From: a virus
Taxonomy: Duplodnaviria > Caudoviricetes
IMG/VR virus record: IMGVR_UViG_3300005758_000087
Location: 17,683-81,682 of that record
Length of the DNA: 64,000 nucleotides
Strand: one strand, 5' to 3'
Below the pieces are notes generated by a model. The model did no database searches. It was not told where the DNA came from and saw only the letters and a list, made by a program, of their open reading frames with translations. Shown here in pieces: positions 14,930 through 46,040 of the stretch. Position numbers and translations under genes: made by a program. The number at the start of each line of letters is the position of its first letter. The first letter of the stretch is position 1.

Positions 14930-17900
14930 TTAAAACGAAAAATTAGCCAATTCTCCGGTATTCAAGACACGAACAGGGATGTAAATAAATTCTGCTGCTT
15001 TCACTGGTTCAATCGCAACATCTATCCAAAGTTCATTTCTATCTATACGTGCCGGTGTGTTGTTGCTTTCGTCACATACCACTAAGTAGTCGAAAAGACC
15101 TCTCTTTGCAACTAAGTCAATGAACAATGACTGAACTACACCTGTTATTTCATTACGTGTTACAGAATCGTTAGGTTCAAACACAAATGGTCTTGCAGCT
15201 ACCTGCAAACGTTCACGAATGTATGCAACTAAACGAGCTACGTTGATTCGATCTAGTGCAGATTGACTATTAAAGCTATTTTTGTTTCCATAGTTTAATA
15301 AACCAACACCTGTAAAGAATGCCAATGGATTTATCTGATTAGTGTATAATACATCCCTTATGGACATACGATTCTTAATTGTGACAAATTCACCGGTAGC
15401 CGCATCTAAGTATCCAATATTAGTTGCGTTATCTATTGTACCCCTTCTTGTACCAGCTGGTGCAAACCAAGGATACGCAACGGTATCATTTCTTAATATA
15501 GTACGCAACATCATGTGACTTGCAGGAACAACAACTTCAGACCCAGATAGATCCGTTGTTATACCACTTGGATAGAATAGTCCCAAATAAGTATCACGTG
15601 TTACTAAACCATCTTCACCGGTTGAGGATGCACCTGCTTCATTATTTGCCCAATTGGTAATTGCTGTAGCTTGATCGGGCAATCTTAACGGTGTGTCACC
15701 GATAATATAAGCAGTGTTGTTTCTATCATTATTAAGAACTACCATATCTGGCTGTAATTCCGGATAGTTAGGACATGCAATCAAGTTAAAGAAGGTATCT
15801 TCTTCTCTTATACTTTGATTAGTGCCAATCGCTGCTTTTAGTGCCTGAACTACTACATTACGTTGAGCCTTACGTCCCATATATGGAGATCCGTTAGTCT
15901 TTAATCCGCTAGCACTTACCCATGTATACGAATATGAGGGTAAAGGACCTTCAGGGTAATTAGCAGCAGTAAAATAGTTTGTTCTAAATTGTTTTACATT
16001 ATATCCTGAACGGCGTGTGTTAAACAACAACATTCCCTGTGGGTACAAAGCTGGATCAGGCGCATCTAAATCTAAATAATTGCTGGTCAACAATGAAACA
16101 ATACTTGGTATAGGATCGCTTACTGGATCAGTTGTGCCGTTATTGGCCCAACGTGCATCTGCAAATAGTATACCATTTTGACTAGTTTGATCAGTGACAT
16201 CAATTCTTACCCATTGGTCTACTCCTTCTACTGCTTCCCAACGGCTGATCACTGGATAATTCTCTAAGTCGCTAGTGTCTAACCATAGATCACCATAGAC
16301 CAATGAAGTTCCGTCAGTTTGTGCTGTGGGTGCAGTAGTACTAATAATAGGACCTAGAGGATCTGTAGCATTTACTCCGGTTGTTATCGGATGTCCGGTA
16401 TTGTCATAGTTAGTATTTTTGTAGCCTATCCATGCTCCGTTTTTCTGCACCATTATATCTACTTGAGTTGCAGTACTATAGAACCAATTAGTGCCGTTCG
16501 CTGGGTTAGTCGCTGGCGCACCCTCATTAGCAATATAACTTATTTCTCTCCAATTAGATAACATTGTAGTTGGATTCAATCTAGGAGTTCCAGAATAGTA
16601 AGATACATCTACGACACCGCCTGCACTAACGTCTTGCACATATAACACTAAGTTATGTGCAGGAGTAACTCCGCCTATGTCCGCGCCTGCAATTGTTATC
16701 AAATCGCCAGCTGCGTAACCTGTACCAGGAGCTGTTAATGTGAACTCATAATAGTCACCCCAATTTCTAATAGTGAACTCTGCTCCGGTTCCTGAACCAG
16801 TTGTTGAAGATTGTGTTACGCCAACTAGTATAGGTGAAACGACAGGACCATAAGTAACACCTGGTGTTTGGAACGTGAAACCTATTTCGTCCAATAAACC
16901 ATTGCTTTGTTCACTCCCATCTACATCTAGTAAAATAATGTCGCCGCCTAATACGTGTTCTAATACAATGTATCCTTCATTAGACACACTTGCAGTAGTA
17001 TTAGGAATACCAGCTGCTAACCAAGAAGCAACAAATTCTTCAGCAGTTGGTCCAGTGGTAGTAACAGTGTAGACTGTAGGACCTGCATTAGGAACTAATG
17101 GAGTTTGACCTGGGGCCGAAACGATAACAAACAATTGTTGACCGCCAGTAATGCTAGGATTAGCAACTGTTCCCTGTACTATAGTAGGACCAACTGAAAA
17201 TCTACTTAATAATTTCATACCTACATTAGGTACAAATCTCGAAGGACCCATTGTAGCTATTACAGTGCCACTAGGTATAGATTTTCCACCTGAAGCATCA
17301 ATGTTAGCAGTAGCAACAGTAGGGTCACTGTAAATAGAAACGCTCTTATTCGCAAAAGAAGCAGTAGTATCGTCATACTGAGACACTAATAAGTTTGCAC
17401 CTTGTCCGGAAACGCTTGTTTTAATCCAAACTGAACCAGTAGGATGAGGCTGTGCTTGCCCTCTAGTCCAAAGTGGCATTTGAGCAGAATTACCAAACTC
17501 TACTTTAGGTGAATAATATGTTCCTACCTCAATACCCATATCAGTCAATGGAGTATTTGTAGTATTAGACAATGTAATGTAAGAATTGACGTTTCCTACG
17601 TCAGGATATCCTGATGATATCACTAGCAAACCGTTAAACACTACTGCACGTAGCCAACTATCATTGATATTATTAATTGCGTCTGCTACGTCTACTACGT
17701 TCCAACCACCATTAATAGTTATTGTTCTAGAATAAACGCCATTTACATTTATAGTAAACTCGTCTCCGCTTGTTAACACGGGGTTGGATACTGTACCTAA
17801 TACTGTAGGCTGAGACAATTTCCATTGGGTACTTCCTAATTCTACCCAATTATTAGCTATATTTTTATAGAAATATGTCGCACGTGAGTAAGAAAAACCT

Positions 17901-21972: not shown

Positions 21973-22142
21973 TTTAACAACTCCATAATGATAATAAAGA
22001 CACTGGGCATGGCAAAAACTAGTGCCAATGCCAAAAAAATGCTGTCACGATACCACGGAACATATGGAATATTCAATGTTTTACACAGTTCTTTATCGGA
22101 CATTTTGCTGACATCAATGTAGTGTACTTTTCGTTCGTTCAT
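21969..22142 (-). CDS. 57-aa protein with C-terminal transmembrane helix
   Basis: Below the cutoff; MNERKVHYIDVSK...IFLALALVFAMPSVFIIIMELLK; ATGA overlaps at both ends. Confidence 0.7.
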   Translation of the reverse strand: MNERKVHYIDVSKMSDKELCKTLNIPYVPWYRDSIFLALALVFAMPSVFIIIMELLK

Positions 22143-22282
22143 TCTTTAACTCCATTAACAATTTGCCATTTTCTAAAAGCACCCCAAGCAGTTGGAAAGT
22201 ATGTTGTTTGTGTTCCAATCAGATTACAACTCCATAAAGGTTCACCAAAATCTAATACTGTTTTATGCAAATGTGGTTTCAT
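22139..22282 (-). CDS. 47-aa hypothetical protein
   Basis: Below the cutoff; MKPHLHKTVLDFGEPLWSC...GVKE; ATGA overlaps at both ends. Confidence 0.65.
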   Translation of the reverse strand: MKPHLHKTVLDFGEPLWSCNLIGTQTTYFPTAWGAFRKWQIVNGVKE

Positions 22283-22506
22283 TCTTCAACTCCAAAATGT
22301 TCTGCTACATTACAAACACGATTGATAACTTCTAGCATCTTGCCATCACCTGGTTCGGGCAAGTCTTTACTGAATACTTCCATACATTCAGCCACAATCA
22401 ACTCAGCGAACTTTTCCAATTCGTCTGCATAGAATTGATACACACCTAGATTTTGTTTATGTGTTGATCCAGCCTGTTCAGCAAGTTCTCGAATTCGTTC
22501 GTTCAT
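22279..22506 (-). CDS. MNERI-family paralog A
   Basis: MNERIRELAEQAG..LEKFAELIVAEC..HFGVEE. Confidence 0.85.
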   Translation of the reverse strand: MNERIRELAEQAGSTHKQNLGVYQFYADELEKFAELIVAECMEVFSKDLPEPGDGKMLEVINRVCNVAEHFGVEE

Positions 22507-22670
22507 CAGTTAATCCCATCAAGATAAAATTTGTATTCCAGACGCATTGCTGCTTCAATTTCCGCATCAGCATCGATGTTATGAAGTTCTTGCAGTTGCG
22601 ACTTTATATCATCACCAAATGATACTGTGTATCGTTTACGCCATTCTTCGTATGTTAGTTTTTCGTTCAT
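22506..22670 (-). CDS. 54-aa protein with gp23-like HxxDADAE segment
   Basis: Below the cutoff; MNEKLTYEEWRKRYTVSFGDDIKSQLQELHNIDADAEIEAAMRLEYKFYLDGIN. Confidence 0.7.
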   Translation of the reverse strand: MNEKLTYEEWRKRYTVSFGDDIKSQLQELHNIDADAEIEAAMRLEYKFYLDGIN

Positions 22671-22897
22671 TCTTCAACTCCAAAATGTTCTTTAATAGTG
22701 TCGGCACAGTCCAGTACCCCACGACGATAATCGTAGCGATATCGGGTATCGGTTTCGTCCATGGATTTACATAATGCCATACATTCTCTCACAATCAACT
22801 CGGCGAATTTTTGCATTTCTTCATCAATGCCCATCGATTCAATAACAAAATCGTATAGTCCGGCCTGTTCCATCAGTTCTTTAATTCGTTCGTTCAT
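22667..22897 (-). CDS. MNERI-family paralog B
   Basis: MNERIKELMEQAG..KFAELIVREC..IKEHFGVEE; start moved to 22897. Confidence 0.85.
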   Translation of the reverse strand: MNERIKELMEQAGLYDFVIESMGIDEEMQKFAELIVRECMALCKSMDETDTRYRYDYRRGVLDCADTIKEHFGVEE

Positions 22898-22944
22898 CGC
22901 AATATCCATACAATAAGTACCACCCCAATCATAAACCAGAACAT
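22894..22944 (-). CDS. 16-aa hydrophobic micropeptide
   Basis: MFWFMIGVVLIVWILR; TAATG overlap upstream and ATGA overlap downstream, fills the gap exactly. Confidence 0.55.
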   Translation of the reverse strand: MFWFMIGVVLIVWILR

Positions 22945-23360
22945 TATACGCTCACTTCAAATCTAAAGTTGTCAGGATCATCTACTAGCTGAGATTCTTG
23001 TACCTCAGTCCATTTACCATCTATTCTAATTTCGATCTTAATTTTTGTCAACTCTTCGGCAACCTTGCGATCAATTTGGTCCAGCATACCAGTGCGCCTT
23101 AACGTTTCGAGCCGGTGCCATTCTTTGAATTCTTTCGTTTCGCACATTTTGACGAAGGCGTCTCTTCGGTTTTCAAGTTGACTACGGCTAGATTCACTGT
23201 AACCTTTGGCGCCTGATTCTCTATGGCGACAATGAACTGCACTTGAAGTTTTATTCTTTTTTTGTCCGCCACTTCCAGTTCCTCGTGTATAGCTCCAGTC
23301 ACAATCATCCTTGGTTACGCTAAACAACAGTTCACGTTTCTTTTCCATAATATTATCCAT
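22944..23360 (-). CDS. Stand-alone class I release factor GGQ domain (ArfB/PrfH-like peptidyl-tRNA hydrolase)
   Basis: YTRGTGSGGQKKNKTSSAVHCRH..SRSQLENRRDA; alternative start 23348. Confidence 0.88.
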   Translation of the reverse strand: MDNIMEKKRELLFSVTKDDCDWSYTRGTGSGGQKKNKTSSAVHCRHRESGAKGYSESSRSQLENRRDAFVKMCETKEFKEWHRLETLRRTGMLDQIDRKVAEELTKIKIEIRIDGKWTEVQESQLVDDPDNFRFEVSV

Positions 23361-23363
23361 TAG

Positions 23364-23753
23364 TTAAACTAAATCCACTTCTTTAGTCAATTCTTTTACA
23401 TACAGGTATGGCAATAGTAATAGTACAGCAGGATGTGGGTCTAGTTCAGACCACATCAATAGTTGGTCATAGGACATGTTTAGGTATTTCTCGCAGTTAT
23501 CGTAGGCAATAAAAGCTAGTATCGCGTCCCTTGCCGCATAACTTGCCGTATTCCATACCGCATCCATTGCCGCATTCAATGCCGCATCTTTTGCTGGATC
23601 CCCTGCCGCATAACTTGCCGTATTCCATACCGCATCCCATTTCGCACTTTTTGCTGAATCCCATGCCGTAATCCATGTGTCGGCGTTATCTTTCAATGTT
23701 TGGAGTACCCAATCAATATGCTTCGCATTTGGCAGTTTTGACCACTCAGACAT
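23364..23753 (-). CDS. MSEW-family Trp/Ala-repeat paralog 1
   Basis: MSEWSKLPNAKHIDWVLQ..(AVWN/TASY/AA)n..AYDNCEKYLNMSY..HPA.LLLPYL; start moved to 23753. Confidence 0.85.
   Translation of the reverse strand: MSEWSKLPNAKHIDWVLQTLKDNADTWITAWDSAKSAKWDAVWNTASYAAGDPAKDAALNAAMDAVWNTASYAARDAILAFIAYDNCEKYLNMSYDQLLMWSELDPHPAVLLLLPYLYVKELTKEVDLV
23532..23637. repeat. 34-nt exact direct repeat inside MSEW paralog 1
   Basis: 23532-23565 = 23604-23637 (72-nt period). Confidence 0.9.
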
Positions 23754-24213
23754 TTTCAATCTCTTTATCTTCGATCTTTTCTTTTACGAACAAGTACGGG
23801 AGCAACAGCACACAAGCAGGGTGTGGGTCTAGTTCAGACCACATCAATAGCTGGTCATAGGACATTTTTAGGTACTTCTCGCAGTTATCATACGCAATTA
23901 AGGCACGAAGCACACACCTTGCCGCCTCCATTTCTGTAACCCTTGCCGGATCCCATACTGCCGGATCACTTGACGCATCCGATATCTCATCCCATATCGC
24001 GAGCAATGCCGGATTCCATGCCTGCAACACATCCTCGTATGCCGTAACTCTTGCCGCCTGCAATATATCATCGTATGCCGTAACTCTTGCCGCCTTCAAC
24101 TCCCCATTCCTTGATGTGGTTAGTGACCCGGCCCATTCTTTGGGGTTATCTTTCAATGTTTGGAGTACCCAATCGATGTGCTTTGCGTTTTGTAGGTGTG
24201 CCCACTCAGACAT
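23746..24213 (-). CDS. MSEW-family Trp/Ala-repeat paralog 2
   Basis: Same constant ends; central AARVTAY repeats. Confidence 0.85.
   Translation of the reverse strand: MSEWAHLQNAKHIDWVLQTLKDNPKEWAGSLTTSRNGELKAARVTAYDDILQAARVTAYEDVLQAWNPALLAIWDEISDASSDPAVWDPARVTEMEAARCVLRALIAYDNCEKYLKMSYDQLLMWSELDPHPACVLLLPYLFVKEKIEDKEIENV
24035..24095. repeat. 25-nt exact direct repeat inside MSEW paralog 2
   Basis: 24035-24059 = 24071-24095 (36-nt period). Confidence 0.9.
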
Positions 24214-24637
24214 TCGCAGTCTCCTTGCTTCTGGTTTCTTCTTTTACGAACAAGTACGGAAGTAACAAAACACAAGCAGGGTGTGGATCTAACTTATTCC
24301 ACATCAGTAATTCCTCATATGACATGTTTAGGTACTTCTCACAATCATCATACGCAATTAAGGCGCGAAGCGAACCCCTTGCCGCCTTCCATGTCGCCTC
24401 CCATACCGTACTCCTTACCGCACCTCTTGTTCCGATCCATGCCGCATCCCAGGCCTCTTCTCGTCCCGCATCCCATATCGCGAGCAATACCGCAGCCCTT
24501 GCCGAATGCCATGCCGCAATACCTACTACGGGTTTCGCTGCGGTCCATGCATTAACCCACGTGTCGAGATTAGCGTTTACTGACTGAAGTACCCAGTCAA
24601 TATGCTTCGCATTTGGCAGATGTGACCATTCGCTCAT
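24206..24637 (-). CDS. MSEW-family Trp/Ala-repeat paralog 3
   Basis: Same constant ends; central AW/IWDA repeats. Confidence 0.85.
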   Translation of the reverse strand: MSEWSHLPNAKHIDWVLQSVNANLDTWVNAWTAAKPVVGIAAWHSARAAVLLAIWDAGREEAWDAAWIGTRGAVRSTVWEATWKAARGSLRALIAYDDCEKYLNMSYEELLMWNKLDPHPACVLLLPYLFVKEETRSKETANV

Positions 24638-24879
24638 TTTTCAACTCCGAAAGTTGGTTGCGGATATCCAAAACGATCCTCAATTAGTGATACATAGTAT
24701 CCTGCTTTTCTTGTTTCACTTTCCATTATTGAGTTGGCGCATTCAGCAACAATCAACTCGGCGAACTTTTCCAATCCGTCGTAGGTATAAACCATACAAC
24801 CTTTTTCGCCGCCAACATGTTGATTGAGATCAACAAAACCTTTAGCCTGTTCAGCAAGTTCTCGAATTCGTTCGTTCAT
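24634..24879 (-). CDS. MNERI-family paralog C
   Basis: MNERIRELAEQA..LEKFAELIVAEC..FGVEK. Confidence 0.85.
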   Translation of the reverse strand: MNERIRELAEQAKGFVDLNQHVGGEKGCMVYTYDGLEKFAELIVAECANSIMESETRKAGYYVSLIEDRFGYPQPTFGVEK

Positions 24880-25058
24880 GCATTCCTCAATCCTATTCTA
24901 CTATATCCAAGTTTTGATTTAGTTTCTCGACGGCTTTCTCTTTGATTACCAAATCGTTTTAAACAAGCAAGGTAACCTGCTAGGTAGCTATCCCAGTCTA
25001 ATTTGGAATCTTCTGCAACATAATCTCGCTTGACTCGTTCGACGAATTCTGGTGTCAT
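24876..25058 (-). CDS. Hypothetical protein
   Basis: 60 aa; starts at a GGAGTTGAAGAATGA junction. Confidence 0.7.
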   Translation of the reverse strand: MTPEFVERVKRDYVAEDSKLDWDSYLAGYLACLKRFGNQRESRRETKSKLGYSRIGLRNA

Positions 25059-25061
25059 TCT

Positions 25062-25382
25062 TCAACTCCACCTCAATAACCAAATAGTTTTTTCATGAGG
25101 ATCATTGAACCTTAGTCTCAGATCCCATTTCATTTTGTCGGTATTGTAGTACTGTTCTACAGTATAGTTACCGGGATACTTCTTCTGCATCCACTTATAT
25201 GCATTGGCTTCGATGTCTGCTTCGGTAACAGTGGTGGTGCCGCCTGCTCCCACTACACCATTGATACCGTTGCCCAATCTACTCAAATAACTCTGCCAAG
25301 TATCCTTAACAGGTTGTGGAATGTTTGAAGCATAAAAGGCTCCTGCATCTGATGTAGAAGTTCCCTTGTATCTCACGGTCAT
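25062..25382 (-). CDS. Chimeric small protein: gp23-like N-terminal peptide plus F..D/E..F.L.W domain
   Basis: TVRYKGTSTSDAGAFYA N-terminus; C-terminus LRFNDPHEKTIWLLRWS. Confidence 0.75.
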   Translation of the reverse strand: MTVRYKGTSTSDAGAFYASNIPQPVKDTWQSYLSRLGNGINGVVGAGGTTTVTEADIEANAYKWMQKKYPGNYTVEQYYNTDKMKWDLRLRFNDPHEKTIWLLRWS

Positions 25383-25624
25383 TCTTCAACTCCGAAATGT
25401 TGTTTAATCTTCTGACTGGCATTTTGTATAGTCCAAAAATAGGGGTCGCTATCTTCAGGATCGGCCATGTCATCTACAACTGCTACACATTCTCTCACAA
25501 TCAATTCGGCGAACTTTTCTAATTCAGATTCAGCAACTTCATATTTGGTCGGGGTTCCAGAAAACTGAAATGAAGATAGATTTACTCCAGCCTGTTCAGC
25601 AAGTTCTCGGATTCGTTCGTTCAT
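25379..25624 (-). CDS. MNERI-family paralog D
   Basis: MNERIRELAEQAG..LEKFAELIVREC..IKQHFGVEE. Confidence 0.85.
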   Translation of the reverse strand: MNERIRELAEQAGVNLSSFQFSGTPTKYEVAESELEKFAELIVRECVAVVDDMADPEDSDPYFWTIQNASQKIKQHFGVEE

Positions 25625-26845: not shown

Positions 26846-26874
26846 ATTATACATGAATCTCATTTTATTGTCAA
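26846..26874 (-). promoter_or_regulatory. Sigma70-type early promoter
   Basis: TTGACA-17 nt-TATAAT, perfect consensus. Confidence 0.9.
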
Positions 26875-39151: not shown

Positions 39152-40561
39152 TCACTTAGATAGATTATTAAGCAACGCTTTGAGCTTTGCAGACCCCACA
39201 TCCGCTACTACTCGTGTAGTAGGAACATTTATCTCATCTTGTACCTTTTCGTTTGTAGTAACCTTAGCTACAGGTTTTAACTTACTTAGTATGTCATTTC
39301 CGCTAGGTTGTGGCTTTTGATAATTGGTACTTTCTTCGGGGTTAGGGTCAGTTATTCGAAGCGTTTCTACATCGAAAGCTAATTCAATTTTCTGACCAAC
39401 TCCTGAACTGCTTCGAGTTTTCATTAACTGCAATTGATATTGTCCCCGTTCTCTCATACTGCGACTTGTGAAAATACCGAACACATTATCGGCAGTATTA
39501 ATTTTAGAAATACCCCCCGAAATATGACTATGATCAAATTCAATTTCTTCTACTGCACTTCGATTAAGTTGAGAAGCGGTCACAAATAATACATTAAGTT
39601 CTTTAGCCAAATTACGCAATTCTTCGGACACATACTTGTCTTTCACGAACAAATCACTAGGACTAACTTTTGCGGATACGGGCATCAGCAAATCCAAATA
39701 GTCTACACACAGGAAATCAACCTTCATACCAGTTTGAATTTCCAGTTCTTTGCAATATGCTCGTAGGTCGTTGACTGTGCTCTGAGCCGGCATATATTTA
39801 ATCCGCAACTTTCCGGATTTTTTAGACATCATTTTGACCTTCATTTCAACATCGTCAATTGATTTAAATATGTCTCTGCTACTTGTGTCAGTCATCATAC
39901 TGTCTATACGCATAGAGCATAGTCCTTCACTAAGTTCCAGTGTTACGTAAACACCGTTTAATCCTGCCTGTACCCAATTAACTGCAAGATTTTGCATAAA
40001 CAAGCTTTTACCTGATCCTGACCCGCCTGCAAAAATTTGTAGTTCACCGCGATTAAACCCACCATATAACTTACTATCCATGCATGGCCAACCCGTACTA
40101 TTTTGACCATTGTTTGACTTTAAGTTCATTAGACGGGCTTTTGGGTCTAAGAAGTAATCGGTTCCCATATCTTTTTGCAAACTGATTTGAACCGCATCTT
40201 TGATTAATTTTTCAACCGGGTCGTAATTGCCTTTTTCTAGATAATCAGCAGCCTTTAATATAGCCCGTTCCAGTTCTTGCCGCCTTGTGAATTTCTCAAA
40301 TTCATCCAAAAACCATTCATAGTGCCCGTCGGTCAATTCTTCAATCGGTTCAATTTCTACACCAGTGACTGCTTTGATTTGATTGGTATCGGGCAAAACA
40401 TTATATTTTTCTGTATGTTCTTTGAACAAATCCGCAACTTCTCTTAATGACTTATCAAAATTCAACGGATTAATTATGTTGGTTACTCTTGTGTATAGCT
40501 CAGAATTTGTGAGCATCATACGCAAAAATAATTTTTGTATGTCTAGATTATACTCTACCAA
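39152..40561 (-). CDS. gp41: Replicative DnaB-like helicase
   Basis: GGSGSGKS Walker A; VTLEL; LCVDYLDL; TASQLNR; ISKINTAD. Confidence 0.95.
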   Translation of the reverse strand: MVEYNLDIQKLFLRMMLTNSELYTRVTNIINPLNFDKSLREVADLFKEHTEKYNVLPDTNQIKAVTGVEIEPIEELTDGHYEWFLDEFEKFTRRQELERAILKAADYLEKGNYDPVEKLIKDAVQISLQKDMGTDYFLDPKARLMNLKSNNGQNSTGWPCMDSKLYGGFNRGELQIFAGGSGSGKSLFMQNLAVNWVQAGLNGVYVTLELSEGLCSMRIDSMMTDTSSRDIFKSIDDVEMKVKMMSKKSGKLRIKYMPAQSTVNDLRAYCKELEIQTGMKVDFLCVDYLDLLMPVSAKVSPSDLFVKDKYVSEELRNLAKELNVLFVTASQLNRSAVEEIEFDHSHISGGISKINTADNVFGIFTSRSMRERGQYQLQLMKTRSSSGVGQKIELAFDVETLRITDPNPEESTNYQKPQPSGNDILSKLKPVAKVTTNEKVQDEINVPTTRVVADVGSAKLKALLNNLSK

Positions 40562-44447: not shown

Positions 44448-44672
44448 TTATTTAAATTTTATTGCAAACCATGTAGCTATTTCTTCTTTGTAGAAGGAAA
44501 AGACCACATAACGATCTTGTTTTGGTTCTTGGTCATATGAATAACTATCAAATATGGGAGGGTGGTATTCAAACGCAAAGTCAATTCCTTGAGCATATCC
44601 CAAATCTCTGATAATTCTTACTACATCCATGGCCTTCGCCGGCGACCACCCATCGCATATTACTTTCGTCAT
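44448..44672 (-). CDS. Small aromatic alpha/beta domain family, member 2
   Basis: VFSFYKEEIATWFAIKF. Confidence 0.75.
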   Translation of the reverse strand: MTKVICDGWSPAKAMDVVRIIRDLGYAQGIDFAFEYHPPIFDSYSYDQEPKQDRYVVFSFYKEEIATWFAIKFK

Positions 44673-44884
44673 AAATGTTTAAGCATAAAAAAAGTTGCCA
44701 GTTCCTCATCTTGAATAAAAAGTTGCCAAGTAACTCCTTTTAATTCAGTATCATATATCTTTTTTACTACCCAGCCCTCGCCACCTATAGCATTGTGAAA
44801 ATAAAACATTCTAGGACCAATATGTTTTAACAACCAATCTTCTTGCTCAGGAGTTAAAGTTTTCTTAAGATTAATTACAGCCAT
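44669..44884 (-). CDS. Small aromatic alpha/beta domain family, member 3
   Basis: DWLLKHIG..LFIQDEELATFFMLKH. Confidence 0.75.
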   Translation of the reverse strand: MAVINLKKTLTPEQEDWLLKHIGPRMFYFHNAIGGEGWVVKKIYDTELKGVTWQLFIQDEELATFFMLKHL

Positions 44885-45159
44885 TTTAAAGAAAATAATG
44901 TTGCATCTTTACTGTCTTCAAACGCAATCTGTGACCCCCCACATATTTTATATTTTCCTATACAGTTCTGCTTCAACCAATTATTATAATTTGATACTAT
45001 CATATTTGATGGGTTTGTAATATGCGACAATTTTATTCCAGTCCAATTGCTGCAATTAACTAACAACCAATATTCTACATCGTCATCTATGGCTCTAATC
45101 ATTTCATTAGCCATATCTTCTATTACTATATTAGCTAACGGTTCATGTTTATTATTCAT
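44875..45159 (-). CDS. Small aromatic alpha/beta domain family, member 4
   Basis: NWLKQNC..IAFEDSKDATLFSLKW. Confidence 0.75.
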   Translation of the reverse strand: MNNKHEPLANIVIEDMANEMIRAIDDDVEYWLLVNCSNWTGIKLSHITNPSNMIVSNYNNWLKQNCIGKYKICGGSQIAFEDSKDATLFSLKWL

Positions 45160-45388
45160 ATCTTAGAACAAACCAATTTCTATCTTGTGCTTTTTTAAAA
45201 TAAAACCCTGAATTATTCAAAAACCAATTATTTTTTTCAAAATTTGCAAGACACCAATTATACATGTTAACTTCATGAAAGATCGTATCGAGCCCGAATG
45301 GACGCCATTCAATTTGTGCCAAGTAGTATACTAATCCATTGATCTTAGTTTCTTCAGTTAGTATAACATATTCGAATCTATCACTCAT
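45152..45388 (-). CDS. Small aromatic alpha/beta domain family, member 5
   Basis: NWCLANF..W..FYFKKAQDRNWFVLRY. Confidence 0.75.
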   Translation of the reverse strand: MSDRFEYVILTEETKINGLVYYLAQIEWRPFGLDTIFHEVNMYNWCLANFEKNNWFLNNSGFYFKKAQDRNWFVLRYE

Positions 45389-45831
45389 GAAAATTTCAGA
45401 TTAAACCACATATAATCTTTATCGCTAACAAATGCAAAAACAACAATATCTTCTGCCCCAAAATCATTAATCAGCCATTGCTTACTAACCAACATGTCTT
45501 TATAATCTACTCTCTCGACTTCCATAACTCTATGAATGTCTGTCCTCCAAAAGTGCTTACAGTTTAAAATACACCAATTTTTTAAATTATCAAGCGCAAT
45601 ATCACAATTATCACAATTATCAAATTTATTGATTATAGTTCGAGCAGTGAAAATAACAGTATACGGATAAAGTTTATAAAATTCATGTATAGTATCAGCA
45701 TATCGATTAACTAAAATGTCGTTTTTTCTGTGATATTGGTACCAACTATTTACCCGTGCTTCTTTAAATAGAATTTTTCTAAAACTTAGTTTAAAATAAG
45801 CTTTGACTTTTCTGACAAGATTCATAGCCAC
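45385..45831 (-). CDS. Small aromatic alpha/beta domain family, member 6
   Basis: NWCILNC..W..FAFVSDKDYMWFNLKF. Confidence 0.75.
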   Translation of the reverse strand: MAMNLVRKVKAYFKLSFRKILFKEARVNSWYQYHRKNDILVNRYADTIHEFYKLYPYTVIFTARTIINKFDNCDNCDIALDNLKNWCILNCKHFWRTDIHRVMEVERVDYKDMLVSKQWLINDFGAEDIVVFAFVSDKDYMWFNLKFS

Positions 45832-46040
45832 CTAAGCGCAAATCTTATTGCATCTTCTTCATTTGAAAAGTAAAAATTCATAGCTTCCTCATGAAACTCA
45901 CAATAATATGTTCCATAACCAGGAAAACCAAATGTTTCTAAAGCCCAAATAGAAGCATTAGTCCATTGTGACGTATCATATGGTAACCGTACTTTAGTAC
46001 CCTGCTTGCTTGAGCGTGTCTTTAACTTCTCTTGTAACAT
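45822..46040 (-). CDS. Small aromatic alpha/beta domain family, member 7
   Basis: IWALETFG..FYFSNEEDAIRFALRW. Confidence 0.75.
   Translation of the reverse strand: MLQEKLKTRSSKQGTKVRLPYDTSQWTNASIWALETFGFPGYGTYYCEFHEEAMNFYFSNEEDAIRFALRWL

Follow-up and report, generated by a model that had tools for sequence, protein, structure and literature searches.

Accessory mini-proteins of a PA5oct/Phosso-like jumbo phage fragment carry segments derived from the major capsid protein

We analysed a 64,000-nucleotide stretch of viral DNA (Duplodnaviria; Caudoviricetes), positions 17,683 to 81,682 of the 81.7 kb IMG/VR record IMGVR_UViG_3300005758_000087 and called the window throughout, in which a first-pass annotation had noticed peptides resembling gp23, the major capsid protein (MCP) of phage T4, in three short open reading frames (ORFs), here named ORF A, ORF B and ORF C. 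All of the quoted peptides lie where they had been reported, on the minus strand (Table 1). Our profile and family comparisons show that the N-terminal modules of these mini-proteins descend from the MCP. Moreover, ORF A and ORF C belong to conserved accessory mini-protein families of jumbo phages with a gp23-type capsid, and so, with less certainty, does ORF B. Alignments of sister proteins from related phages further show that one small scaffold displays conserved motifs of several essential phage proteins, sometimes concatenated.

Because no capsid gene is found in the 81.7 kb record, window included, MCPs from related complete genomes were used in place of the phage's own gp23. Profiles were built from 7 and then 11 capsid proteins, taken from three complete IMG/VR relatives, PA5oct, Phosso, phiM12, Vibrio SUMAE, S-RIM50, HTVC008M, Asfd_1 and G2248. 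In unfiltered hmmsearch runs over all 1030 six-frame ORFs of at least 30 amino acids (aa) of the record, the top rank went to ORF A (E 4.5e-5 and 1.1e-4), its residues 2-24 lying on the VGYKG..DAG.YYAPY.P block of the MCP. ORF B ranked second (E 0.035 and 0.042), with all remaining frames at E 0.24 or higher, and ORF C alone was noise (E 34). Two N-terminus types of the ORF A family were compared with MCP alignments by hhalign: members with the MCP C-block (M..GYKG....AG.FYAP..P) gave P 1.2e-8 to 4.6e-8 and members with the MCP N-block (..LRK.IP..IA.EIVGVQPM) P 1e-8 to 4.5e-7. The ORF B family reached P 2.5e-6 to 4.6e-6 and the ORF C family P 1.2e-5 to 1.7e-5, and all of these alignments fall at the collinear position of the MCP.

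Several controls accompany these values. None of 150 column permutations scored as high as the observed alignments between families and MCPs, reversed sequences of both ORF A types gave P ~0.55, and a helical scaffold-protein alignment used as decoy gave P 0.19-0.58 (scores 11.5-14.7) with the four families. Against 50 other large proteins of the record the best scores were 20.7 for the ORF B family and 16.5 for the ORF C family, compared with up to 31.6 (single MCPs) and 33-36 (own-clade MCPs), respectively, for the capsid proteins themselves. The resemblance of the ORF A start to gp23, originally put at 10 of 17 identical residues, was reproduced at the homologous place with the MCP of the T4 relative Krischvirus G2248 (MTVRYKGTSTSDAGAFYAS versus TVGYKGDNEMDAGIYYA). 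Likewise, the gp23-like character of ORF B is borne out by its rank and by its family. For ORF C, initially offered as a weaker third case, an intermediate sequence decides the matter, since an ORF of 112 aa in the related phage G011 belongs to the ORF C family (E 8e-20) and also exceeds the Pfam Gp23 cut-off. The first-pass annotation had named a lack of significant gp23 matches in profile searches as one outcome that would refute it; the matches found are significant. The graft of ORF A may possibly extend through residues 25-50, where TWQSYLRRLGNGINGV is collinear with FKTRYG..NPF (not significant alone, P 0.11).

Searches with the single proteins of the window were much less informative. 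Neither Pfam nor PHROGs returned anything for ORFs A, B and C, and there was no match to Gp23 (PF07068; 376 profile positions, gathering cut-off 24.4 bits) at E up to 1. At only 54-106 aa, none of the three comprises the complete HK97 fold of ~400 residues. In tblastn searches of 50,697 phage genomes, ORF B and ORF C matched no MCP and ORF A gave only matches of E 4-5, though nine out of ten were MCPs at the homologous motif. A search of related loci with ORF A as single protein found nothing, and a BLAST comparison of small with large ORFs in the related genome G001 and in the record itself was dominated by off-frame repeat ORFs and is too insensitive for grafts of ~20 aa.

ORF A and ORF C share a carrier domain for which there is no curated family and which we define here as the LRW superfamily: a two-strand hairpin and a helix with a conserved W/C precede a C-terminal helix that ends in [FWYML]x[LIMFV][KR][WFYH]. 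Seven LRW-type genes lie in the window, ORF A and a tandem array of six that includes ORF C, while ORF B has no LRW domain. For homology between the domains of ORF A and ORF C type we rely on their shared order of secondary-structure elements and the C-terminal motif only, without significant alignment. In the AlphaFold model of ORF A, residues 1-17 have a predicted local distance difference test (pLDDT) score below 50 and are followed by helix, helix, strand, strand and helix. The ORF C model (pLDDT 91.9) consists of a long helix followed by strand, helix, strand, strand and helix. A search of the Atlas returned only viral hypothetical clusters and a weak likeness to the palm of reverse transcriptases. 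As far as described anti-defence families are concerned, Pfam and PHROGs returned no match for ORFs A-C, and no structural match went beyond Z 4.3 or Foldseek E 0.25; the PADLOC and anti-defence libraries were not searched.

Metagenomic homologues of ORF A fall into at least 81 clusters, those of ORF B into 18 and those of ORF C into ~35. Among 81 representatives of the ORF A family, the body is well conserved (W29, Q30, Y32, L33, R35, G39, N41 and G42 are invariant or almost so) and the N-terminus is variable: ~33 carry the C-block, 16 the N-block (~7 of these being hybrids that retain a C-block tail) and ~25 a short N-terminus free of any graft. The copied segments recur in accessory genes of many related phages, as the first-pass annotation had suggested, and they are not random pieces of gp23, since the same three MCP blocks are found again and again, at positions 2-62, 136-219 and 306-354 of the Pfam Gp23 profile. 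Six small ORFs of relatives exceed the Gp23 cut-off (25.8-46.2 bits), each spanning only 39-84 of the 376 positions, and a further one was found by a genome search in G005 (Table 1). The 126-aa ORF of Phosso matches more than 1000 MCPs in tblastn. Across the related phages, these pieces sit on different LRW subfamilies with differing boundaries. Metagenomic Pfam Gp23 matches on proteins of 100-150 aa are thus not always truncated capsid genes.

The distribution of the genes is patchy. No homologue of ORF A or ORF B was found in 80 loci syntenic for a 396-aa gene that heads the operon, together with the whole of G001 (1.3 Mb in all), and MCP-like small ORFs were found in this set in G005 alone. 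In G007, an ORF C-type gene lies directly upstream of an ORF A-type gene. The same genome holds at least ten LRW-type mini-genes arrayed downstream of a Peptidase_S11-like gene (L120:3736-7538), and such a Peptidase_S11-like gene also adjoins ORF B homologues in contigs L130-L132.

The protein from G005 represents a further LRW family, here called KYKFSR, with at least 187 homologue clusters. Its C-terminal domain is conserved (KYKFSRAKWY..AWCTEQFGP..DAWSRW..FRDEKDY.WF.LRWS) and its N-termini are modular; 115 of 120 listed proteins have a scorable N-terminal module. The MCP N-block is the commonest graft (70 of the 120 listed). A second module, GGF..GEM.LYSAGR.TGKS (17 listed), matches the DnaB-like helicases of the record and of G001 at their Walker A region (P 4.4e-6). 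A third, IY.TNLCKEI.LP (32 listed), matches the ribonucleotide reductase of G001 at its catalytic NLCxEI loop (P 1.3e-5), a match whose single-query E-values are weak after multiple testing and which is supported by the family-level test. For the fourth, K.ALNS.YG (6 listed), the family-B polymerase of G001 came out best among 209 templates, with the alignment on its motif B (P 2.9e-5). Permutation nulls scored below 19, and as a negative control the helicase-type set aligned to the MCP with a score of 13 (P 0.35). In one protein, P0209, polymerase motif-B-like and reductase NLCKEI peptides are adjacent at the N-terminus (..RKMQLNSIYGTNLCKEIILPG..; RKMQLNSIYG-TNLCKEIILP). No viral protein family in which one scaffold presents invariant motifs from several essential proteins is known to us, and our literature search found none described. 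The initial framing of the mini-proteins as capsid mimics stands insofar as the segments are MCP-derived and not due to chance, but it is too narrow: with helicase, reductase and polymerase motifs on the same scaffold, capsid sensing alone is not the whole story.

The age of the grafts can be judged from three genomes that contain both a chimera and their own MCP (G010, G011 and Phosso). Here, grafts and own MCP are 38-52% identical in protein and 48-54% in DNA, and the grafts do not resemble the own MCP more than they resemble the MCPs of other phages. Given this lack of any excess towards the own MCP, the captures are therefore old and their conservation does not come about via gene conversion from the own MCP gene, a candidate that we rejected on the ~50% DNA identity. 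Among the 31 C-block members of the ORF A family, the graft has a pairwise identity of 46% and the core one of 73%, and G4, Y5, K6, G7, G14, A18, P19 and P22 of the graft are each kept in 26-29 members. Similarly, I22, G24 and Q26 of ILGVQPM are invariant in the KYKFSR family. Since residues that are invariant in the MCP are kept in grafts that have otherwise diverged, neutral decay, which the first-pass annotation had named as an outcome fatal to its proposal, does not describe them, and the substitution patterns show that the grafts are constrained at the protein level. One protein of 167 aa, P0162 (L134:71-574), differs from the others: MCP residues 1-97 (E 8.8e-41 to the G001 MCP), almost unchanged, are fused to a KYKFSR LRW domain, and its gene is the first in an array of small genes on a contig of 4.5 kb. 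Either recent recombination with the capsid gene or a chimeric assembly may account for this protein.

These patterns bear on two explanations that do without a function of the encoded peptides. The first is recombination debris: hyperplastic mini-gene arrays would gain functionless gene scraps by illegitimate recombination, of which only those with conserved motifs would be recognisable. Detection is indeed biased toward conserved blocks, the region is an indel hot spot with repeated 15-nt junctions, many members are without graft or have N-termini of no recognisable origin, and P0162 looks like a fresh fusion. Scraps of this kind would nevertheless not be expected to keep the MCP-invariant residues at 85-95% across members when even the constrained core has diverged to 73% identity, or to place the same blocks on at least five scaffold subfamilies with differing boundaries. 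In addition, these are old families of considerable size (at least 81 and at least 187 clusters), and a clade-specific profile able to detect any recent capture of the MCP found only these blocks in 1.3 Mb of related DNA. We consider debris quite unlikely. The second explanation would place the role of the grafts in the nucleic acid, either as copies of target sites of homing endonucleases or inteins or as donors or acceptors in gene conversion. Inteins and homing endonucleases classically insert in the MCP, the P-loop of the helicase, the catalytic loop of the reductase and motif B of the polymerase, genes of the SegE type and HNH genes occur in neighbouring arrays, and P0162 may be a recombinant with the MCP gene. 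However, the DNA identity to the own MCP gene is what amino-acid identity alone gives, conservation tracks amino acids and not bases, and the grafts cover both sides of the motif instead of stopping at the insertion point. Mimicry at the nucleic-acid level by the grafts thus appears unlikely on these comparisons, and we find an explanation of this type highly improbable.

At the protein level, we tentatively favour the possibility, which may well prove wrong, that the mini-proteins work as competitive mimics, counteracting some factor of the host that acts upon hallmark proteins while these are nascent. This reading is favoured because of the early promoter, the accessory distribution, the swapping and loss of modules and the retention of residues which the parent proteins cannot change. 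The genes would be expressed early, from a host-type promoter. The graft of ORF A, predicted to be flexible, would be a protein-level mimic of a segment that is exposed in the parent only while this is nascent or unfolded. We assume here that the copied MCP pieces belong to the core of the HK97 fold and the enzyme pieces to active sites, so that both are presumably exposed in their parents only before folding. By occupying a factor that reads such segments, the mimic could competitively blunt the action of this factor on the real proteins. Candidates for this factor would include a quality-control factor and, on the side of defence, a sensor or protease of the Lit/Gol-EF-Tu type, and the LRW domain could serve as a stable carrier or as a blocking module. 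A precedent for the reading of capsid segments is the Gol region, 29 residues in the first quarter of gp23 that have been called its most conserved region and that bind EF-Tu, thereby activating Lit (PMC3014915). Furthermore, the N-terminus of gp23 directs fusion proteins to GroEL (PMC3012670).

Several observations weigh against such mimicry. A mimic of a trigger should be expected to activate the sensor, unless it binds without activating. The MCP-like helix of ORF C is integral to a confidently folded domain (pLDDT above 90) and is no flexible bait. Both Walker A and the catalytic loop of the reductase lie buried in active sites, and we know of no sensor that reads P-loop or reductase-loop peptides. 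The graft has been lost in many family members, ORF A itself has R4 and S19 at two graft positions where its family is otherwise conserved, and ORF B is marginal when taken alone and lacks the carrier. The LRW fold has no informative structural match. Finally, the genes are sporadic: they are absent from the complete genomes G001-G003. More doubtful than competitive mimicry as such is the notion that LRW proteins constitute a modular peptide display of jumbo phages, antagonising host sensors or proteases that read unmutable segments of nascent hallmark proteins. We regard as similarly doubtful the content of this display, in which a ~60-aa carrier would present, early in infection, three capsid blocks, the helicase P-loop, the reductase loop and polymerase motif B.

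Other functions of the peptides would not involve a sensor. As dominant-negative microProteins, the grafts would pair, through their core strand or helix, with the complementary elements of a folding or assembling gp23-type capsid protein (or of the helicase and the other parents) and poison its folding or assembly. Such poisoning would be directed either at a competitor phage that co-infects the cell or, before its proper time, at the protein of the phage itself. All three MCP blocks appear, by the mapping that we assume, to lie in the HK97 core, so that a free copy would meet only an unfolded partner, and a sporadic, accessory distribution is in line with such a role. Plants provide an established case of the microProtein principle (PMC7534434). 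In 24 of 31 cases, ORF A-type grafts obtain a higher score with the T4-like than with the own-clade MCP profile (15.3 versus 8.0 bits for ORF A), which would fit a sparing of the own capsid, but the two profiles differ in diversity, which makes this comparison of bit scores weak and ambiguous. In contrast, N-block and helix grafts match the own clade best, so that the own MCP would also be affected, and a Walker A or NLCxEI peptide of 12-20 residues is hardly expected to disrupt a folded enzyme. We therefore rate poisoning of this kind as unlikely.

Alternatively, the grafts could be targeting tags which recruit the carrier to the chaperonin or to EF-Tu, both of which handle nascent gp23, for the folding of the mini-protein or in order to titrate or induce chaperones ahead of the late capsid burst. 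Such tags would agree with the known targeting of fusion proteins to GroEL by the gp23 N-terminus and the binding of the Gol region to EF-Tu (PMC3012670, PMC3014915), with the predominance of the N-block among KYKFSR grafts and with the presence of a Cpn10-like co-chaperonin in PA5oct. A housekeeping role is, however, at odds with sporadic presence and with frequent loss and swapping of the graft; it leaves the helicase, reductase and polymerase motifs unexplained, and a 60-aa domain should need no chaperonin. In addition, a search of the record and of G001-G003 turned up no chaperonin gene. Taken together, we hold targeting tags to be very unlikely. The co-chaperonin of PA5oct is gp194 (NC_071039.1 188381-188707; 21.2 bits), analogous to T4 gp31, and no Cpn10-like protein was detected in G001-G003 or in the present record.

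The mini-genes come from an uncultured phage, and CheckV estimates the completeness of the record at 24%. Its large terminase is ~50% identical to the homologues of Pseudomonas phage PA5oct, Sinorhizobium phage Phosso and Agrobacterium phage Atu_ph07, and the record encodes a long tail sheath and other T4-type virion genes; by these genes the window is therefore a fragment of a PA5oct/Phosso-like jumbo phage of the gp23-capsid group. Jumbo phages of the PA5oct/Phosso group use a gp23-type capsid protein (PMC7824862). A nucleotide search with the record returned no close cultured relative.

In the window, all genes from 21.6 to 26.8 kb are on the minus strand with tight overlaps. They include four paralogs of 81 aa, the MNERI family, which start MNERIRELAEQAG.. 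and end ..HFGVEE. A 15-nt junction, GGAGTTGAAGAATGA, occurs in the window in four exact and three one-mismatch copies, compared with 0.22 expected, and corresponds to the 3′ end of the MNERI genes (G V E E stop), with the next ATG lying inside the stop codon. The first-pass annotation had noticed that ORF A and ORF B both begin at this junction. It does precede both, but only because each comes after a MNERI gene; it is the end of that preceding gene and not a feature of the grafts. ORF A is bracketed by GGAGTTGAAGAATGA on both sides, with GGAG seven bases ahead of the ATG. Since the upstream copy reads GVEE-stop and the downstream copy WS-stop, the junction repeat is kept regardless of the frame of the preceding gene. 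Two tiny ORFs follow one-mismatch copies, and the start MNERK of a tiny ORF, the MNERI family itself and the start MNEK of ORF B suggest that the first codons may belong to the repeated junction.

Upstream of the array lies a perfect sigma-70 promoter, which makes the early expression proposed at the outset plausible; relatives of the mini-proteins are moreover located in small-gene arrays adjoining rIIB. In the related locus L011, whose 396-aa gene is 86% identical, a release-factor-domain gene directly follows the 396-aa gene. In the window, the ORF A, MNERI and MSEW genes separate the two, and this block is therefore best seen as an accessory insertion. The three MSEW paralogs have no homologues among the related loci compared. 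A gene for an RF-1-domain protein also lies near ORF A-type genes in contig L115.

Table 1. Features of the window and Gp23-matching small ORFs of related phages. Positions are nucleotides of the window or, for ORFs of related phages, positions of the Pfam Gp23 profile.
Feature	Position	Strand	Remarks
ORF A, 106 aa	25062-25382	minus	MCP C-block graft and LRW-type alpha-beta-beta-alpha domain
ORF A graft, residues 2-24 (TVRYKGTSTSDAGAFYASNIPQP)	25311-25379	minus	copy of the MCP motif VGYKG..DAG.[FY]YAPY.P; predicted disordered
ORF B, 54 aa	22506-22670	minus	stand-alone helical mini-protein
ORF B residues 19-47 (GDDIKSQLQELHNIDADAEIEAAMRLEYK)	22530-22616	minus	match the MCP segment before the spine helix (G001 MCP residues 177-205)
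ORF C, 94 aa	44875-45159	minus	LRW-type; long N-terminal helix resembles the MCP spine helix
ORF C residues 6-44	45028-45144	minus	align to MCP residues 190-226 (spine helix)
Tandem array of six LRW-type mini-genes including ORF C	44448-46040	minus	products end ..F.L[KR][WFYH]
15-nt junction copy upstream of ORF A	25379-25393	minus	read GVEE-stop
15-nt junction copy at the end of ORF A	25055-25069	minus	other frame (W S stop), then next ATG
MNERI paralog 1	25379-25624	minus	3′ end (GVEE, stop) is the junction overlapping the ORF A start codon
MNERI paralog 3	22667-22909	minus	3′ end is the junction overlapping the ORF B start codon
Sigma-70 promoter, perfect (TTGACA-17-TATAAT, 12/12)	26846-26874	minus	upstream of the operon-heading 396-aa gene and the mini-gene array
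Sigma-70-like promoter, 11/12	23051-23023	minus	inside the RF-1 gene, upstream of MNERI paralog 3
RF-1 (GGQ)-domain-only protein, 138 aa	22944-23360	minus	Pfam 47.5 bits, PHROG 3122; within the mini-gene array
Three tandem paralogs (131, 155 and 143 aa), start MSEW..LPNAKHIDWVLQ	23364-24637	minus	repetitive Trp/Ala-rich middle
Tiny ORFs, 57 and 47 aa	21969-22142, 22139-22282	minus	after one-mismatch junction copies
DnaB-like replicative helicase	39152-40561	minus	context, no graft; its Walker A region is the source type copied in mini-proteins of other phages
Phosso ORF, 126 aa	306-354		Gp23 25.8 bits
Phosso ORF, 226 aa	9-62		Gp23 37.1 bits
G010 (364 kb, terminal repeats) ORF, 139 aa	2-56		Gp23 46.2 bits
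G010 ORF, 124 aa	4-61		Gp23 29.6 bits
G011 (382 kb) ORF, 147 aa	6-44		Gp23 37.0 bits
G011 ORF, 112 aa	136-219		Gp23 35.4 bits
G005 ORF, 112 aa	4-48		Gp23 47.9 bits (genome search)

Whatever their function, the chimeras show that small accessory genes can arise when invariant motifs from essential genes become joined to a shared scaffold, and that such fusions persist under selection, in hundreds of protein clusters, in uncultured jumbo phages. If the grafts are functional mimics, they point to segments of capsid, helicase, reductase and polymerase which some cellular factor recognises, and they would provide testable peptides for the questions of how conserved phage proteins are sensed in abortive infection and what response is left to phages that cannot mutate the target. 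If the mini-proteins indeed constitute a peptide display, the grafts would be a ready-made catalogue of the epitopes read by bacterial immunity.

The gene organisation resembles the hyperplastic regions of T4-type phages, in which mobile cassettes of small genes are shuffled by PeSL-type elements. As there, tiny early genes stand in arrays with short repeated junctions and their presence varies among close relatives. In contrast, the junction here is a 15-nt overlap of Shine-Dalgarno sequence, stop and start and not a promoter stem-loop, and shuffling of cassettes accounts for the movement of genes but not for the hallmark motifs. Srd and Srh of T4 are small early proteins that resemble pieces of host sigma factors and are thought to be decoys. 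The mini-proteins are likewise small phage proteins, probably early, that resemble fragments of a larger protein; however, they mimic hallmark proteins of the phage itself instead of host proteins, and Srd and Srh have no shared scaffold with swappable N-terminal modules. The N-block, which we take to correspond to Gol residues 93-122, relates the families to the Gol/Lit exclusion system of e14, as in the sister proteins these grafts span the block that is best conserved within the first quarter of the MCP. Gol, too, is a short conserved stretch of gp23 that functions as a free-standing peptide and binds domains II/III of EF-Tu (PMC3014915). Whereas Gol sits within the capsid protein as a trigger, the block is here found on a separate, probably early, mini-protein; moreover, ORFs A-C bear the C-block and the helix block, and N-block grafts are confined to the sister proteins of other phages. 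Finally, the microProteins of plants and animals are small proteins made of one interaction element of a larger protein and act by competition (PMC7534434). Derivation of a small protein from part of a larger one is also what hmmsearch, hhalign, the permutations and Pfam Gp23 indicate for the mini-proteins. Unlike microProteins, which carry a complete dimerisation domain from one parent, the mini-proteins are viral and combine core motifs of 12-65 residues from several unrelated parents with a common unrelated scaffold. If the grafts are functional mimics, they would be the first viral counterpart of microProteins.

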